From: an uncultured Verrucomicrobia subdivision 3 bacterium
GTDB lineage: Bacteria > Verrucomicrobiota > Verrucomicrobiia > Limisphaerales > UBA11358
DNA: 64,000 bases
Direction of reading: 5' to 3'
Assembly: GCA_903835255.1 (NCBI GenBank)
Contig: CAILMI010000033.1
Coordinates: forward strand, 13,431 to 77,430
The notes under the pieces are model-generated. The model was given only the letters and a program-made list of their open reading frames with translations. It was not told where the DNA came from and made no database searches. This document shows positions 2,240 to 58,675 of the stretch, in pieces (position 1 is the first letter of the stretch; each line of letters begins with the position of its first letter). Both the position numbers and the translations under genes were made by a program.

Positions 2240-3235
2240 TCAGGGGCCGCCCAGCGGCGGGGCAGAGGGGGCGGGGCCGCCCGCCTTGTTTTGCGAGGCC
2301 TCAACCTTGATGTAATGCAGCACGACGGGCGCGAGGACCATGCCGGGAACACCCATCAGTTTTTCCCCCAGCACCAGCCCCAGCAGCGTGAGCCACATCG
2401 GATTCCGGATGCGGTCGCCCACAATCTTGCTATTCAGAAAGTATTCCAGCTTGTGGATGACCATGAGAAAGATCAGCGCGACCAGCGCCATCCGCGGCGA
2501 AATGGTGAACCCGACGAAGACGATCAGCGTGTTGCTGAGCACGTTGCCAACAATCGGCAGCAGGCCGCATAGAAACGTCAGCGCCGCGATGACCGCAACA
2601 TAGGGATAGCCGTTCCAGAGGAGAAAAGCCCCCGTGATCGCTGTGTTGATGGTGGAGACGATGATTTGGGCGCCGATGACCCGGGAGAAGCTGCGAAAAA
2701 AAGTTTTAAATCGGAGGCTTAGCTCCCGAACCATGGTGGAGTAAAGGTTGTCGTGCGCCGTCCCAGGCTCGCGCTCCGAGCCCCACCTCGCACTCAAAAA
2801 AAGGCTCGCCGCCACCACCAGCCCGATGAGCAGTTGCACGCCCTTGAACGCCACCTCGCGCGCATGCCGTCCGGCACCGGCCACGTCCTCTTTCATCTCC
2901 GTGAGCACCACTGTTTTCAAGCCCGCATAGTCCGTGAAGGGCAGCTCGATCCCCTGTCGCCCGGCAAATTCAGCAACGGCTGGAATGGTGGTTTCTGCAA
3001 TTTTTGGAAAAGTTTGATACGCCTGCTTGGAAAAATAATACAGGCCCCAGCTGATGACAGACACCACCACCACATACAAAGCCAGCCCGAGGAATTTGCT
3101 GCGCCCAAGGCTGAACACCCGCAGCGCAAAGAAGCCGAACAGCGCGGACAGCACCAGCGTCCCCAGATGCAGCGAGCCGATCAGCACCAGCAGGGCGGCC
3201 ATGATGATATAAGAATTGCGGATAGAATGGCTCAT
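2240..3235 (-). CDS. AI-2E family transporter (PerM/UPF0118-like membrane protein)
   Basis: Multi-TM protein. The C-terminal region 'GLLPIVGNVLSNTLIVFVG...HKLEYFLNSKIVGDRIRNPMWLTLLGLVLGEKLMGVPGM' is characteristic of the family. Confidence 0.8.
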   Translation of the reverse strand: MSHSIRNSYIIMAALLVLIGSLHLGTLVLSALFGFFALRVFSLGRSKFLGLALYVVVVSVISWGLYYFSKQAYQTFPKIAETTIPAVAEFAGRQGIELPFTDYAGLKTVVLTEMKEDVAGAGRHAREVAFKGVQLLIGLVVAASLFLSARWGSEREPGTAHDNLYSTMVRELSLRFKTFFRSFSRVIGAQIIVSTINTAITGAFLLWNGYPYVAVIAALTFLCGLLPIVGNVLSNTLIVFVGFTISPRMALVALIFLMVIHKLEYFLNSKIVGDRIRNPMWLTLLGLVLGEKLMGVPGMVLAPVVLHYIKVEASQNKAGGPAPSAPPLGGP

Positions 3236-3330
3236 GACAGGAGGATGCCCCGCCCGCTCCCAGCCAGTGGCCGGAAACGGTCGGAATCGGATGTGGGTAT
3301 CAGATAAAGATAATTCATGGTCCGGTAAAT

Positions 3331-4959
3331 TCAGCGGATGCGCGCGAGCAGCCAGTCGCGGAGTTCGGAGATTTTCAGCCGCTCCTGCCGTCCGTCGTCG
3401 CGATAGCGCAGGGTGACCGTATCCAGCCGCTCCGGGTTTTCGCCGAGCGTGTCGAAATCAATCGTCACACAGAACGGCGTGCCGGCTTCATCCTGGCGCG
3501 CGTAGCGGCGGCCGATCGAGCCCGCCTCGTCATAGAACACATTCATCCAGGGCCGCAGGGCATCCCGGATTTCCAGCGCTTTCTTGACGATATCCGGCTT
3601 GTTCTTCAGCAGCGGCAGCACGCCAACTTTGATAGGGGCGACGCGCGGATGGAACCGCATTGTCACGCGCGTTTCGCTCTTACCCTTGTCGTCCGTCTCG
3701 GTGGTTTCCGAATAGGCGTTGGCCAGCAGCGCCAAAATCAAGCGATCCACCCCGGCGCTGGGCTCAATCACATGGGGAATGTACTGCCCCTTCGCCAGGC
3801 CGTTCGCGTCATCGGTCGCCTGCCGGGATGCGGGCTCAGCCTCGACGCCCGATTTCAACAGGTAGTTTTTACGGTTCTCGTAATAGCGGCGCCAGAGGTC
3901 GTCCGATTTTTCCTTCGGCAACTTTGCCCACGCCGCGCGCAGCTCGTCGTCGAACACCCCCATCGGTTTTCCGGAAAAACGCTGGTGCTGGCTCAGGTCG
4001 AAATCGCTGCGCGCGGCCACCCCCTCCAATTCATCGCCGATGACATTGCCCTGCTCATCCTTTTTGCTGAACGGAAACTTGAACAAAATATCCGTGCAGG
4101 CGCGGGCGTAATGGGCGAGCTCCTGCGGCGTCTGGCGGTGAAAGCCTAGCGTCGAGCGGTCCAGCCCGATGCCCTGGTAAAAGCGCACGCGCTCCTCCAC
4201 CCAGTATTGGTGCCAGGCCTGCCAGCCCCAGTTGGGCTGGGGCTCCAGCGCCGGGGAATCGGGGCCGGGGATTTCGGGGGTCGCCACCGCGCCATGAATC
4301 GCCTCAATCACTTCATCCGGCTTGATGAAGAACTCCAGCTCCATCTGTTCGAACTCGCGCGACCGGAAAATGAAATTGCGGGGGGTGACCTCGTTGCGGA
4401 AGGCCTTGCCGACCTGGGCGATGCCGAACGGCACCTTCTGCCGCGCCGTTTCCATCACATTCTTGAACTGGGCGAAAATCGCCTGCGCCGTTTCCGGGCG
4501 GAGATATGCCAGATCCTCCGCCGTGGCCGTCGGCCCGACGTACGTCTGGAACATCAGATTGAACGCGCGCGCCTCGGTCTTCTCGCCATGGCATTGCTGG
4601 ACGCACTGGCTGGGCTTTTGCGGGCAGGAAATCTCCCCGGTCTGGTCCGCGCGAAAACGGCCCTTGCACGTCTTGCAGTCAATCATCGGATCGCTGAACG
4701 TCGCAACGTGGCCGGACGCCTCCCAGATTTTCGGCGACATGAGGATGGTCGCCTCGAGGCCGGCGACGTCATCGCGCTGGCGGGTCATGGCCTGCCACCA
4801 GAGCTCCTTGACGTTGCGCTTGAGTTCCGCGCCGAGGGGGCCGTAATCCCAGAAGCCGTTGATGCCGCCGTAGATTTCGGAAGACTGAAACACAAACCCG
4901 CGCCGCTTGCACAGCGACACGATTTTTTCCATCTGCAAATTTTCTCTGGGTTCGGCCAT
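3331..4959 (-). CDS. glyQS: glycine--tRNA ligase (alpha2 type)
   Basis: 'EKIVSLCKRRGFVFQSSEIYGGINGFWDYGPLG' plus class II motifs. Start is ambiguous: ATG at 4959 or 4932, and the TTG at 4998 used in the track is less likely. Confidence 0.9.
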   Translation of the reverse strand: MAEPRENLQMEKIVSLCKRRGFVFQSSEIYGGINGFWDYGPLGAELKRNVKELWWQAMTRQRDDVAGLEATILMSPKIWEASGHVATFSDPMIDCKTCKGRFRADQTGEISCPQKPSQCVQQCHGEKTEARAFNLMFQTYVGPTATAEDLAYLRPETAQAIFAQFKNVMETARQKVPFGIAQVGKAFRNEVTPRNFIFRSREFEQMELEFFIKPDEVIEAIHGAVATPEIPGPDSPALEPQPNWGWQAWHQYWVEERVRFYQGIGLDRSTLGFHRQTPQELAHYARACTDILFKFPFSKKDEQGNVIGDELEGVAARSDFDLSQHQRFSGKPMGVFDDELRAAWAKLPKEKSDDLWRRYYENRKNYLLKSGVEAEPASRQATDDANGLAKGQYIPHVIEPSAGVDRLILALLANAYSETTETDDKGKSETRVTMRFHPRVAPIKVGVLPLLKNKPDIVKKALEIRDALRPWMNVFYDEAGSIGRRYARQDEAGTPFCVTIDFDTLGENPERLDTVTLRYRDDGRQERLKISELRDWLLARIR

Positions 4960-24985: not shown

Positions 24986-25032
24986 GATGGCAGGCATTTC
25001 TGCCTGCCATCGAGGGCGGCCTCTGGCCGCCC
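24986..25032 (-). terminator. two tandem GC-rich hairpins downstream of the thioredoxin-domain gene (possible terminator or REP-like)
   Basis: GATGGCAGGCA-TTTC-TGCCTGCCATC has an 11-bp stem and GGGCGGCC-TCT-GGCCGCCC has an 8-bp stem. They lie 29-75 nt after the stop at 25061. There is no clear U-tract. Confidence 0.4.
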
Positions 25033-29284: not shown

Positions 29285-29303
29285 CCTTCAATTCGTGTTC
29301 ATG

Positions 29304-29371
29304 AGTGAAATTCGTGTCTATTTAAGTTGTTTGTCTGATTGGTGATAATTAGTGAAATTCGTGTCTATTTA
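29304..29371 (+). repeat. 20-nt direct repeat (2 copies) between the GxxExxY gene and valS
   Basis: 'GTGAAATTCGTGTCTATTTA' occurs at 29304-29323 and 29352-29371. The second copy ends at the A of the valS ATG. Confidence 0.85.
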
Positions 29372-32151
29372 TGTCTGAACTTTCCAAAGCTTACGAGCCG
29401 CAGTCCGTTGAGGACAAATGGTACGCCTTCTGGCTGGAACAGGGCTGCTTCACCGCCAACCCTGCGTCCGCCAAGCCGGCCTACTCCATCGTCATCCCGC
29501 CGCCGAACGTCACCGGCATGCTCCACATGGGCCACGTCCTCAACAACGCCATCCAGGACATCCTCAGCCGCAAGGCGCGCATGGACGGCAAGGAAGTCCT
29601 CTGGCTCCCCGGCACTGACCACGCCGGCATCGCCACGCAGGTGATGGTGGAAAAGCAGCTCAAGAAGGAGGAGAAAAAATCCCGCCACGATCTCGGCCGC
29701 GAGGAATTTCTCAAGCGCGTCTGGGTGTGGAAAGAAAAGCACGGCGACATCATCATCAACCAGCTCAAGAAGCTCGGTTGCTCGTGCGATTGGACGCGCG
29801 AACGCTTCACGATGGACCCGGACTATTCCCGCTGCGTCCAGAAGGTGTTCGTCGAGCTTTATAAGAAAGGCCTCATCTATCGCGGCAAACGGATGGTGAA
29901 CTGGTGCCCAGTGTCCCAGACCGCGTTGTCGGACGAAGAAGTGGAAATGAAACCGCAGAAGGGTTTCCTGTATCACTTCAAAGTGCAGGTTGCTGACTGT
30001 AGCGGCGCTGTGTCAGCGCCGAACTCGGCGGTCACAGACCGCCGCTGCATAGAGGGCGACATCAAACTCACTGACACCTGGCTAACCATCGCCACCACGC
30101 GCCCCGAGACGATTCCCGGCGACACGGCTGTGGCCGTGAATCCGAAAGACCCGCGTTACGCGCATCTTATCGGCAAGCACATCGTGCGGCCGCTGCCCGC
30201 TGAATTGCCGCAGGGTCAAAAACTCATCCCCATCATCGGCGACGAGCATGTGGATTTTGAATTCGGCACCGGCGTGCTCAAGGTCACGCCCGCCCACGAC
30301 AAGGCGGACTTCGACATCGGCGCGCGCCACAAGCTGCCGCTCATCGAAGTCATCAACGCCGACGGCACGATGAACGCTTTGGCGGGTGGGCCGCTGGCCG
30401 GGCTGGATCGTTTCAAGGCCCGCAAAGTTGCCGTGGAAATTCTCACGGAACAGGGCGTGATGATTGAATCCAAGCCTTACGAGAACAACGTCGGGTTCAG
30501 CCAGCGCGCGGATGTGCCCATCGAACCGCGCCTGAGCGAACAATGGTTTTTGAAGTATCCCGCCGTGCCGGAATCCAAAGCCTGCGTGGCCGAGGGCCGG
30601 ATGAAATTTCATCCCGACCGCTGGGCTAAGGTTTACGATCATTGGCTGACGAACATTCAGGACTGGTGCATCAGCCGCCAGCTCTGGTGGGGCCATCGGA
30701 TTCCGGTGTGGTATCGGGGTGAGGAAATCCACTGCGGCCTCGAAGCCCCGGCGGGCAGCGGATGGACCCAGGACGCCGACGTGCTCGACACTTGGTTCAG
30801 CTCGTGGCTGTGGCCGTTTGCTACCATGGGCTGGCCGGAGCCGACCGAGACGTTGAAGAAGTTTTATCCGACCACCGACCTGGTCACCGGGCCGGACATC
30901 ATTTTCTTCTGGGTCGCGCGCATGATCATGGCCGGCTACGAATTCATGGGCGAGGCGGAGTCCGCCGGCCCCAAGAAGTTCGCGCTCCCGGACGCGATGC
31001 CGTTCCAGAATGTTTATTTCACCGGCATCATCCGCGACAAGCAGGGCCGCAAGATGTCCAAGACGCTCGGCAACTCGCCCGACCCGCTCGACCTGATCGC
31101 GCGCTACGGCGCCGACGCCCTCCGCTTCGGCACTATGCGCAGCGCCCCGCTCGGCCAGGACGTGCTGTTCGACGAGAAGGACGTGGAGCTGGGCCGCAAC
31201 TTCTGCAACAAGCTCTGGAACGCCTGCCGGTTCCGCCAGATGCAGGGCGGCGAAGTGCAGGGCGAGATCGACCCCGCGCTGCTATCCAACGACGATCAAT
31301 GGATCCTGCTGAAGCTGGACACGGCCATCCGCGAGGTCACCCTCGCTCTGAACGAATACAAGTTCAGCGAGGCTACGGGCGCTCTCTACCGTTTCTTCTG
31401 GAGCGAGTATTGCGACTGGTATGTGGAAGCCAGCAAAGCGGTCTTCTTTGGCGACGATGCGGCGCGCAAGGCCAACACGCTCGCGGTGATCGATTTTGTC
31501 CTGTCCCACGCGGTGCGCCTCTTCCATCCCTTCGTGCCCTTCATCACCGAGGAACTATGGCACGGCATGGGATACGCCACCGACATGCCCGCCAACCAGG
31601 GCGGCACCACTATCCTGTTCGCGCCGTGGCCGATGCCGCTGGATGAGGAAATCAAGGCGCATTATGGGCTCACCGACGACTCCCTGAAGCTTGCCGATGC
31701 GAAATATGGACTCGTCACCCAAGGCCGCAATCTGCGGCGCGAGGCCAATCTCTCGACCGGCAAAAAAATTTCCTGCGTTCTGAAGCCGACCCGGGAATTG
31801 GCGCCGCATGACATCGCCGTCATCCGGGTGCTGCTTAATGCCGAGGCCGTGGAGGTTGCCGCTGATTATCAGCCCGCCAAAGGCACTCTGACGGCGCGGA
31901 CGGAGCTGGGCGAACTGTACCTGCCGCTCGAGGGCCTGCGCAGTCCGGAGGAGCTGGATGCCGAAAAAATCCGCGTCGCGCGCGAGCTCGAAAAAATCGA
32001 GGCGGAAATCGCCAAGGTCGAACAAAAACTGGCCAACCCGAACTTCACCCAGAAGGTTCCGGCCGCCGTGCTGCAGGAACATTCGCAGCGCCTCGCCGAG
32101 TGGCGGGCCAAGCGCGACAGCGTGAAAGCCGCTCTTGAGGCTTTGAACTAA
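29371..32151 (+). CDS. valS: valine--tRNA ligase
   Basis: HIGH region 'PPPNVTGMLHMGH', 'ATTRPETIPGD', 'KMSKT', and a C-terminal coiled coil. Confidence 0.95.
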   Translation: MSELSKAYEPQSVEDKWYAFWLEQGCFTANPASAKPAYSIVIPPPNVTGMLHMGHVLNNAIQDILSRKARMDGKEVLWLPGTDHAGIATQVMVEKQLKKEEKKSRHDLGREEFLKRVWVWKEKHGDIIINQLKKLGCSCDWTRERFTMDPDYSRCVQKVFVELYKKGLIYRGKRMVNWCPVSQTALSDEEVEMKPQKGFLYHFKVQVADCSGAVSAPNSAVTDRRCIEGDIKLTDTWLTIATTRPETIPGDTAVAVNPKDPRYAHLIGKHIVRPLPAELPQGQKLIPIIGDEHVDFEFGTGVLKVTPAHDKADFDIGARHKLPLIEVINADGTMNALAGGPLAGLDRFKARKVAVEILTEQGVMIESKPYENNVGFSQRADVPIEPRLSEQWFLKYPAVPESKACVAEGRMKFHPDRWAKVYDHWLTNIQDWCISRQLWWGHRIPVWYRGEEIHCGLEAPAGSGWTQDADVLDTWFSSWLWPFATMGWPEPTETLKKFYPTTDLVTGPDIIFFWVARMIMAGYEFMGEAESAGPKKFALPDAMPFQNVYFTGIIRDKQGRKMSKTLGNSPDPLDLIARYGADALRFGTMRSAPLGQDVLFDEKDVELGRNFCNKLWNACRFRQMQGGEVQGEIDPALLSNDDQWILLKLDTAIREVTLALNEYKFSEATGALYRFFWSEYCDWYVEASKAVFFGDDAARKANTLAVIDFVLSHAVRLFHPFVPFITEELWHGMGYATDMPANQGGTTILFAPWPMPLDEEIKAHYGLTDDSLKLADAKYGLVTQGRNLRREANLSTGKKISCVLKPTRELAPHDIAVIRVLLNAEAVEVAADYQPAKGTLTARTELGELYLPLEGLRSPEELDAEKIRVARELEKIEAEIAKVEQKLANPNFTQKVPAAVLQEHSQRLAEWRAKRDSVKAALEALN
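29998..30049 (+). repeat. double-hairpin palindromic element inside the valS CDS
   Basis: TGTAG-[CGGCGCTG TGT CAGCGCCG]-AACT-[CGGCGGTC ACA GACCGCCG]-CTGCA. There are two perfect 8-bp stems with 3-nt loops. Confidence 0.8.
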
Positions 32152-39686: not shown

Positions 39687-39704
39687 ACGCCGGCGCTTGA
39701 ATCC

Positions 39705-39975
39705 GAACGCCCCAATAGGAGTAAGCGCCCGCGTGATAGGGTCAGCGCGCCGCGGACCTCGCCCGCTTTCAGCAGACGTCAGGAAGGCGGTCAGAACGAA
39801 CGCCCCACACGTTCCTTCCGCGCCGGTTTTTGACCGGTAGGGATCGCCGCGCTGCGGCGTCCCCCAGCGCCGAGCGCAGCGTCAGGCGACGGAAAGCGCG
39901 TCGCAAGGAGAGCGTCTTTTTTCCGTTCGTTCCGCCCTCCCGGGCGGGGGCATCGCAGCGCGATGCCCTCTACCT
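39705..39975. repeat. Dispersed structured repeat family R1, copy A (about 270 bp)
   Basis: Aligns over its full length with 58403-58675, with high identity by eye. It contains hairpins CCGCCC-TCCC-GGGCGG (39932-39947) and GGGCATCGC-AGC-GCGATGCCC (39948-39968). Confidence 0.85.
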
Positions 39976-40069
39976 GCTTGGATGGCGGGATCCCATTTTG
40001 TACCCGTTCCCGAATAAAAATGTTGCGCCGCGCCACACCGCGCCGCACTTCAACAGTCTTGGCCGTCCC

Positions 40070-40204
40070 AACGCCCCAGGTAGGGATCGCCGCGCTGCGG
40101 CGTCCCCGGCGCCGAGCGCAGCGTCAGGCGCCGGAAAACGCGTCGCAAGGCGGGTGTCTTATTCCCGTTCGTTCCACCCTCCCGGGCGGGGGCATCGCAG
40201 CGCT
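40070..40204. repeat. R1 repeat, copy B (truncated, right two-thirds only)
   Basis: 'GTAGGGATCGCCGCGCTGCGGCGTCCCCGGCGCCGAGCGCAGCGTCAGGCGCCGGAAAACG...GGGCATCGCAGCGC' matches the core of copies A and C. The terminal hairpin is cut after its first arm. Confidence 0.8.
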
Positions 40205-40281
40205 GAAGAATTGTCAAAATAGCGCCACAGGTAACCAGTGATTTCACAGACGGGATAGAATGTGTCCGTGGGAAAACAAAG

Positions 40282-58400: not shown

Positions 58401-58402
58401 AC

Positions 58403-58675
58403 GAACGCCGCAATAGGAGTTCTCGCCCGCGTGGCAAGGTCAGCGCGCAGCGGACCTCGCCCGCGTTCAGCGGACGTCAGGAATCGGCTTGGAAGAGACG
58501 CCCGTAAAAGTCCCTACCGCGCCGGGTTTTTTACCGGTAGGGATCGCCGCGCTGCGGCGTCCCCCGGCGCCGAGCGTAGCGTCAGGCGCCGGAAAACGAA
58601 TCGCAAGGCGAGTGTCTTTTTTCCGTTCGTTCCGCCCTGTCGGGCGGGGGCATCGCAGCGCGATGCCCTCTACCT
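58403..58675. repeat. R1 repeat, copy C
   Basis: Full-length match to 39705-39975, including the terminal hairpin GGGCATCGC-AGC-GCGATGCCC (58648-58668). It is preceded by the 14-bp perfect palindrome TTAAGTTAACTTAA (58385-58398). Confidence 0.85.

Follow-up and report, generated by a model that had tools for sequence, protein, structure and literature searches.

Repetitive extragenic palindromic (REP) sequences carrying the tag GTAG are known to form head-head dimers, to be associated with REP-associated tyrosine transposases (RAYTs) and, in their intragenic copies, to encode 20-30 residues (Di Nocera, De Gregorio & Rocco 2013, BMC Genomics 14:522, PMC3733652); such intragenic copies are most numerous in the verrucomicrobium Opitutus terrae, tRNA synthetase genes have been struck in other species (PMC3733652), and the phenomenon itself is therefore already published for Verrucomicrobia. 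In Pseudomonas and Enterobacteria, the REPINs, composed of inverted REPs, show conserved arms and a variable spacer and are almost exclusively extragenic (bioRxiv 10.1101/2021.07.10.451892; Bertels & Rainey 2011, PLoS Genet 7:e1002132). Here, a 52-nt double hairpin is described which lies in frame within valS, the gene of valine-tRNA ligase (ValRS), of an uncultured Verrucomicrobia subdivision 3 bacterium (assembly GCA_903835255.1, contig CAILMI010000033.1); the whole stretch of this contig that was analysed, 64 kb in length, is called the window. The observations are best accounted for, with a probability of about 0.8, if the 52-nt element is a REPIN of a dispersed family provided with a RAYT, which landed in valS, whose translated peptide is irrelevant, which has been spread by recombination and whose arms are held constant as nucleic acid.

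With the GTAG REPs of O. terrae the valS element shares the GTAG tag, a GC-rich stem in the range of 6-9 bp, the arrangement in dimers with the tags outward, the position in frame in housekeeping genes, the link to a RAYT and the verrucomicrobial host; the families GTAG-17 to GTAG-20, however, give peptides such as VGPALAAG and are of another sequence, and the strings of the valS family were found neither in PMC3733652 and its supplements nor in the literature searched, where only unrelated primer sequences were retrieved. That the valS family spans several classes of Verrucomicrobiota as well as Acidobacteriota is not reported there, and neither are the conservation of orthologous arms at the nucleotide level and the occupation of one loop by several families. 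The REPIN-RAYT systems of Pseudomonas and Enterobacteria resemble it in the inverted palindromic REPs, the variable spacer and the RAYT flanked by the same REPs, but their REPINs are about 100 bp long and lineage-specific, whereas the valS copy measures 52 nt, has a spacer of 4 nt, is translated as part of an essential gene and comes from a family that crosses phyla. IS200/IS605 elements and their miniature derivatives likewise possess subterminal hairpins recognised by a Y1 HUH transposase and produce no target-site duplication; unlike them, the valS element has no coding capacity, and the RAYTs form a separate, usually single-copy branch. In the preliminary description of this DNA, made from its letters, a parallel had been drawn to the Rickettsia palindromic elements (RPEs). 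As regards in-frame translation the parallel is sound, RPEs being palindromic repeats in frame in functional protein genes, translated as a surface peptide (Ogata et al. 2000, Science 290:347, cited from PMC3733652 and PMC3184786); it does not extend to kinship, given that RPEs are elements of about 105-146 bp from AT-rich genomes, with no GTAG tag, no known transposase and no sequence relation to the valS element. RPE-4 and RPE-6 are of the CGTC type (PMC3733652), and membership in RPE-1 to RPE-8 was rejected for an element of 52 nt with a GTAG tag and a host in Verrucomicrobiota, leaving a resemblance that is functional only.

In the window the element reads TGTAG-CGGCGCTG-TGT-CAGCGCCG-AACT-CGGCGGTC-ACA-GACCGCCG-CTGCA (Table 1). 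It was confirmed by inspection, by a repeat finder and by the open reading frame (ORF) that, as first described, two perfect hairpins stand side by side in frame in valS, their stems being 8 bp and their loops 3 nt long, that the loops TGT and ACA are complementary to one another, and that the pair is bracketed by TGTAG (29998-30002) and CTGCA (30045-30049). The entire 52 nt constitute an imperfect palindrome of 25+25 nt, the arms of which (29998-30022 and 30025-30049) are 80% complementary, and encode C210-SGAVSAPNSAVTDRR-C226, that is, 17 residues. The loop-closing pair of the left hairpin is flipped with respect to the family variant CGGCGCTC-TRT-GAGCGCCG, and the right tag has undergone an A-to-G change by which a Tyr became Cys226. 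The frame used by valS, TGT AGC, is one of the two that escape the TAG contained in GTAG; a landing in this frame would have avoided the stop and yielded the translated loop extension. The host gene is intact: ValRS of Thermus thermophilus (1GAX) matches the ORF at E=4.7e-201 by alignment, and close homologues carry the precomputed Pfam domains PF00133, PF08264 and PF10458. The tail that follows the REPIN is common to valS alleles holding other REP families.

Table 1. Features of valS and of its loop cassette; positions are those of the window.
Feature	Position	Strand	Remarks
valS (valine-tRNA ligase), intact host gene, 926 aa	29371..32151	+	ORF; Pfam domains of homologues; 1GAX match
Loop cassette (REPIN plus 9-codon tail), residues C210-D235	29998..30075	+	Stands where the common empty allele has the tight turn (E)APD
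REPIN, two inverted GTAG-tagged REPs, tags outward (head-head dimer)	29998..30049	+	Translated CSGAVSAPNSAVTDRRC
Left REP tag GTAG	29999..30002	+	Canonical family start CTGTAG at 29997-30002
Left REP hairpin CGGCGCTG-TGT-CAGCGCCG	30003..30021	+	Variant private to valS
Spacer AACT	30022..30025	+	Varies between orthologues
Right REP hairpin CGGCGGTC-ACA-GACCGCCG	30026..30044	+	Identical to the family consensus
Right REP tag CTGC, degenerate	30045..30048	+	CTAC in most relatives
Tail IEGDIKLTD	30049..30075	+	Outside the REPIN consensus

The possibility that such palindromes arose by chance or as an artefact of assembly, in favour of which only the GC-rich background can be adduced, has practically no standing left and may be regarded as refuted: an adjacent pair of hairpins occurred in 0 of 40 first-order Markov simulations of the window, and no fewer than 10 assemblies of independent origin (ENA, JGI, NCBI) contain the element, always with the same junctions. 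Perfect hairpins with a stem of at least 8 bp and a loop of 3-6 nt number 15 in the window, compared with 5.8 +/- 2.8 in the same simulations. The suggestion that these other hairpins are of a like style was not borne out, the family being absent from the rest of the 64 kb, where neither of the two hairpins nor the family head was detected again. As RNA, the segment is predicted to favour one long hairpin (-35.7 kcal/mol, z = -3.25), as DNA two small ones (-21.7 kcal/mol, z = -3.9); no Rfam family reached its gathering score across the window, and a permissive scan of the locus gave best E-values of 2-10.

Outside the window the right hairpin is far from unique. A search for its exact 19 nt against one genome per species returned at least 120 matches, almost all of them in Verrucomicrobiota (every class) and in Terriglobia/Acidobacteriota, and in some metagenome-assembled genomes (MAGs), such as JBEBFV01, JAEUGW01 and QHXD01 among the matches listed, the family is present on several contigs. 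From the aligned flanks the consensus (C)TGTAG-CGGCG[C/G]TCT[A/G]TGA[G/C]CGCCG-variable spacer-CGGCGGTCACAGACCGCCG-CTACA(G) was derived; the inner stem triplets of 151 genomic units are GTC/GAC in 117 and CTC/GAG in 28, both perfectly paired, and mismatched in 6. Spacers of the matched genomic doublets range from 6 to 60 nt, mostly 9-31, so that the 4-nt spacer of valS is shorter than any. The many copies in public genomes agree with the assignment to a GC-rich REP-type unit proposed at the outset, which is further supported by the tags (GTAG on the left; on the right CTGC here, where 8 of 10 orthologues have CTAC), by the presence of inverted REPs that are separated by less than 130 bp and whose arms are conserved while the spacer varies, by orthologous sites that are empty and by a RAYT flanked by the same REPs in one genome. 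The extragenic location, a trait typical of REPs rather than strictly defining, is not displayed by the valS copy.

The genome with the flanked RAYT is an Opitutia MAG (L015), in which REPs of the family at 3234-3258 and 3744-3768, tags outward, enclose an ORF of 152 aa (3272..3730), an arrangement termed a REPtron; the ORF scores 88.2 bits (cut-off 80) against NCBIfam NF047646, REP-associated tyrosine transposase, and also matches Pfam Y1_Tnp. This RAYT gene, like that of locus L181 discussed below, was found by tblastn with an approximate E. coli RAYT query and was verified independently with Pfam and NCBIfam; the association thus holds for the family and not for the source genome. At positions 3230-3238 of the same locus, the 645-aa gene upstream of the RAYT ends at the TAG of the GTAG tag of the REP; gene stops supplied in this way have been described for other GTAG REPs (Di Nocera et al., PMC3733652). 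The REP family scattered through Verrucomicrobiota and Acidobacteriota genomes is associated with a RAYT, an IS200-like HUH enzyme, and a RAYT-mediated insertion may have brought one copy into valS, at the tip of the beta-hairpin opening the editing domain and without target-site duplication.

Empty and filled forms of this site were compared in 120 relatives, all of them Verrucomicrobiota MAGs of which the few named are Verrucomicrobiae or Limisphaerales. In 76 of the 121 ValRS, the query included, the site is empty and consists of a tight turn, VQVAE-AP-DTWLTIATTRPET, with the pattern AE.P[DGN]TW, while the window and 11 relatives have the filled form VQVAD-CSGAVSAPNSAVTDRR(Y/C/R)-xExDIKLTD-TWLTI; one further carrier, P0088, with a homodimer variant of the family, brings the sequences with family A to 13. 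When DNA of an empty allele (L001) is set against that of filled alleles, the inserted block is the palindrome. The linker is indeed longer here, as had been claimed, with 29 residues versus 4 in T. thermophilus (the 1GAX alignment breaks at 204/209, residues 205-208 lying opposite the 29) and 49 versus 26 in most close relatives when counted from LSDEEV to ATTRPET. The match between the extra residues and the palindrome is not exact, since the filled allele is longer by 23 aa, which are the 17 of the REPIN plus the 9 of the tail minus 3 of the turn. An AF2 model of the 926 aa, built on a shallow alignment of 50 sequences, poor overall (mean pLDDT 59, pTM 0.40) and used for the local strand-loop-strand only, has a strand at 192-209, pLDDT below 50 at 212-224 and a strand at 232-242. 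The insert is modelled at the tip of the beta-hairpin which opens the editing (CP1) domain. A repeat of CTGAC (29993-29997 and 30071-30075) was considered as a target-site duplication and rejected, because it is not kept in relatives, where only GAC is common; the element was likewise rejected as a miniature inverted-repeat transposable element, there being no target-site duplication and the CTGAC repeat bracketing the tail and not the element.

The same hairpin tip, as judged from the DNA of 80 further valS loci, holds many different inserts. At least four other palindromic families are present, namely GTAGG(G/A)CAGGC...GCCTGTCCTAC, translated as GQASRLP...RDACPT, CTGGGAGCGCCGGCGTCCC...GGCGCTCCCAGG, CCCCTCACCCCGGCCCTCTCCCC...GGGGAGAGGG, translated as LTPALSPxGGEGE, and GTAGGGGAAGGT..., and the site is therefore an insertion hot spot. 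Some relatives carry heptanucleotide simple repeats, (CCGAAAT)n or (GCGGAAA)n, and P0065 and P0106 whole domains, PF00359 (PTS-EIIA-like) and PF08529 (NusA_N-like). Loop inserts were recorded, at the equivalent of window 29995-30078, in L128, L136, L141, L147, L148, L151, L155, L156, L158, L163, L164, L167, L169, L171, L174, L177, L180, L181, L189, L191, L192 and L197. Such diverse repeats and whole domains would be found there because the loop tolerates almost anything. The length of ValRS across the clade varies from 876 to 1189 aa; a second variable site follows WGHRIPVW (window ~30700-30790) and contains unrelated inserts of 23-144 aa, and there are three further sites.

The question whether the stems are a mere by-product of codon choice for a conserved and functional Cys...Cys loop peptide of ValRS finds its answer in the translated copies. 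The peptide CSGAVSAP.SAVTDRR is indeed conserved among the carriers, as that explanation would have it; the same DNA, however, occurs at more than 100 unrelated and mostly intergenic sites, and most orthologues do without the peptide, with no peptide of the same length in those that lack the palindrome. In L003, the locus of P0088, the same family occupies the same valS site, but the spacer measures 20 nt and the left arm is read in a different frame, as AVAAVCDRR instead of CSGAVSAP. Four-fold sites are invariant even where this entails the non-preferred codons GCT, TCA and ACA, and the adjoining peptide varies approximately as fast as the flanking four-fold sites. Most carriers have Tyr or Arg in place of the second Cys, for which reason a role of the two Cys in a disulfide or in zinc binding was also rejected. 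In other genes, moreover, the family DNA gives different peptides (VAAVCDRR, GGHRPPLQ, RRSQTAAT, AVTDRRY): of the 124 copies of the family that were sampled, at least 10 are translated in frame in real genes, with Pfam domains both before and after them, the hosts being LeuRS (two orthologues, L007 and L063), XseA, the large subunit of exonuclease VII (L011), TsaD (L084), Obg (L103), MetH (L116), a polyketide synthase (L043), a DEAH helicase (L099), an aminotransferase and a glycogen debranching enzyme; L031 and L051 belong to the same set. The explanation by codon choice is already refuted by the tests of frame, of four-fold sites and of family, and retains a negligible probability; the amino-acid sequence of the loop extension, as part of the REPIN reading, appears not to matter.

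The nucleotide sequence of the arms, on the contrary, is strikingly constant. Among ten valS orthologues with the family-A cassette, 20 of 86 four-fold sites in the flanking codons are invariant, with at least 1.03 changes per site, compared with all 11 scorable four-fold sites in the arms (Poisson P about 1e-5). The carriers not being monophyletic, this flank-based test was complemented by a contrast within the cassette that is independent of the gene tree: variation affects 2 of 48 arm positions and none of the 32 stem positions, compared with 22 of 33 positions of spacer plus tail (Fisher 1e-9), the two exceptions being a loop base in L002 and the change in the tag that gives Cys226. The spacer is AACT, GCTT, GGTT, AATT or AAAT, with 21 nt more in L129 and 36 nt more in L126, and together with the tail it varies at about the rate of four-fold sites in the flanking codons; in the orthologous LeuRS REPIN (L007 vs L063) the arms are identical and approximately one third of the spacer positions differ. 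Arms which are frozen beside a drifting spacer and tail point to a constraint on nucleotide sequence and not on the peptide. Since hairpin 1 pairs third codon positions with each other, silent compensated changes would be possible, but none is seen, and the constraint is therefore not merely on pairing. Finally, the left arm carries the variant CTG...CAG (CTC...GAG in the family, one pair being flipped), which among 206 loci is confined to valS and was met in 0 of 151 genomic REP units; this privacy indicates that the cassette arose once and speaks against its being overwritten by generic copies.

In the REPIN reading, the arms would be kept constant by sequence-specific recognition of REP hairpins, most likely by the cognate RAYT, or alternatively by a structural role in mRNA or DNA. 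It has to be considered, on the other hand, whether concerted evolution, by gene conversion from other copies or by hairpin-templated correction of the quasi-palindrome, keeps the stems perfect. Correction by template switching is a well-established source of mutation in quasi-palindromes, the right arm matches the phylum-wide consensus exactly and valS is visibly mosaic, all of which would suit this explanation; yet the left arm has evidently not been overwritten by generic copies, self-templated correction predicts compensated changes at about the mutation rate where no stem position has changed, and no donor copies were seen within about 130 kb of carrier DNA, which makes concerted evolution improbable as the cause.

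A second alternative overlaps with the REPIN reading and differs from it in claiming a benefit to the host: the formerly mobile REPIN would now be kept by selection as a structured mRNA or single-stranded DNA element of valS, for example as a translational pause before the editing domain folds, as a docking site for an RNase or a RAYT, or as a recombination signal. It would accommodate the invariance of four-fold sites in the arms next to a spacer and tail that vary like those of the flanks, the silent compensated changes of hairpin 1 that are available and unused, the left-arm variant private to valS, the lack of any other family copy in the window, the stability predicted for the RNA and the same pattern of arms and spacer in LeuRS. 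Most relatives, however, fare well with an empty site, unrelated and simple repeats in the same loop elsewhere speak for tolerance rather than function, there is no match in Rfam, and REPINs everywhere normally combine conserved arms with a spacer that varies (bioRxiv 10.1101/2021.07.10.451892), so that an exaptation of this kind can be entertained only as a minority view.

How the cassette came to be distributed as it is can be appreciated from the valS genes themselves. In neighbour-joining trees of the whole protein and of each flank the carriers are scattered among empty-site and other alleles. The filled P0010 and the empty P0051 are near-identical in residues 1-208 and 540-1014 and differ in the loop, in a patch just downstream and in the second variable site, the inserts of which are different even between these two. 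The window, compared with the empty allele L165, is 98-100% identical over 180 nt upstream of the loop (~29630-29810), with 100% in the first 120 nt, and 83-93% identical nearer to the loop and beyond it, which may be taken as a sign of recent recombination within valS. From these patterns it follows that valS is a mosaic gene; the carriers do not form one clade, and both the trees and the comparison of P0010 with P0051 tell against vertical descent from a single old insertion. It is therefore probable that the cassette spreads by homologous recombination between lineages, this being the simplest way in which REPIN and tail, of one origin, could now reside in unrelated valS backgrounds.

Several points weigh against the REPIN reading as a whole. 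Sliding-window identities did not clearly delimit a recombinant patch at the cassette when the more divergent carriers were compared, the flanks being 80-95% identical in all pairs. The tail is outside the REPIN, and the original insertion event is not cleanly reconstructable. The private left arm counts against upkeep by conversion from generic copies, leaving the proposed cause of arm conservation a putative one. No RAYT was found in the 64-kb window by tblastn with an approximate query, no other family copies were found in the window or in about 70 kb of flanking DNA of carrier relatives, so that the family would be no more than putatively active in the source genome.

The most elaborate occupants of ValRS are the RAYTs themselves. 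Locus L181 (JGI contig Ga0302319_10002132) contains a complete REPtron of 684 nt, or 228 codons (2383-3066), in frame in valS, which is placed between WGHRIPVWYRK and DVLDTWFSSW, is flanked by GTAG...CTAC hairpins and leaves the frame open over 823 codons. Its product is RAYT-like, with 73.5 bits against NF047646, just below the cut-off of 80, and 29.6 bits against PF01797, above the cut-off of that family, and has intact HUH (PNHVHAIV) and ESYDH motifs. In P0121, a ValRS of Chthoniobacterales, a RAYT occupies the same site; it is continuous in frame with the ValRS flanks on either side and 59% identical to that of L181. As the two RAYTs are only 59% identical, the arrangement looks old and inherited, and to judge from the motifs the embedded RAYT is apparently catalytically intact in some relatives. 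P0122, P0123 and P0138 are grouped with P0121 among the RAYT-in-ValRS proteins. Many of the database proteins P0142-P0218 join PF01797 with host domains, be they true fusions or read-through calls across REPtrons; the partners include ValRS, D-Tyr-tRNA deacylase PF02580 (at least 13 clusters), B12-binding PF02310, helicase PF13307, HsdR PF04313 and 2-hydroxyacid dehydrogenase. No description of a RAYT inside ValRS was found in the literature searched. A more comprehensive proposal, which is put forward with reserve and is at present the less likely view, would have the arms of the valS REPIN selected as a nucleic-acid signal, either a site of RAYT docking and processing or an mRNA structure, and the surface loops of ValRS acting as exchangeable, recombination-shuffled cassettes that trap REPs and RAYTs, up to an embedded RAYT.

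Other repeats of the window may be recorded here. AT-rich direct repeats of 37 nt, 86% identical, lie just upstream of the valS start codon at 29371 (29291-29327) and overlapping it (29338-29374). The only other adjacent pair of perfect hairpins, GATGGCAGGCA-TTTC-TGCCTGCCATC and GGGCGGCC-TCT-GGCCGCCC (24986-25011 and 25014-25032), has no sequence relation to the valS element; it may represent a terminator or a different type of repeat. A repeat of about 270 nt is present two to three times (39704-39975, 58402-58675 and, at 66%, 40067-40217); it ends in the hairpin GGGCATCGC-AGC-GCGATGCCC followed by TCTAC, that is, in a GTAG-tagged hairpin on the minus strand, and has no match in Rfam.

Three observations reach further than the published picture: a nucleotide constraint confined to the arms of an orthologous coding copy, the hot spot shared by several families with exchange of cassettes, and the RAYT in ValRS. 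REPs and REPINs, usually called extragenic, routinely enter essential proteins in Verrucomicrobiota, and a REP family common to several phyla has been identified. For annotation, this means that AVTDRRY, GQASRLP/RDACPT and LTPALSPxGGEGE in proteins of this phylum are translated repeats and not domains, while the hot spot in ValRS, as a permissive insertion site, may serve engineering. The orthologous valS copies represent a natural experiment in which constraint on nucleic acid and constraint on protein are separated within a few nucleotides, and the question whether REPINs are maintained for a reason becomes testable at a single locus.

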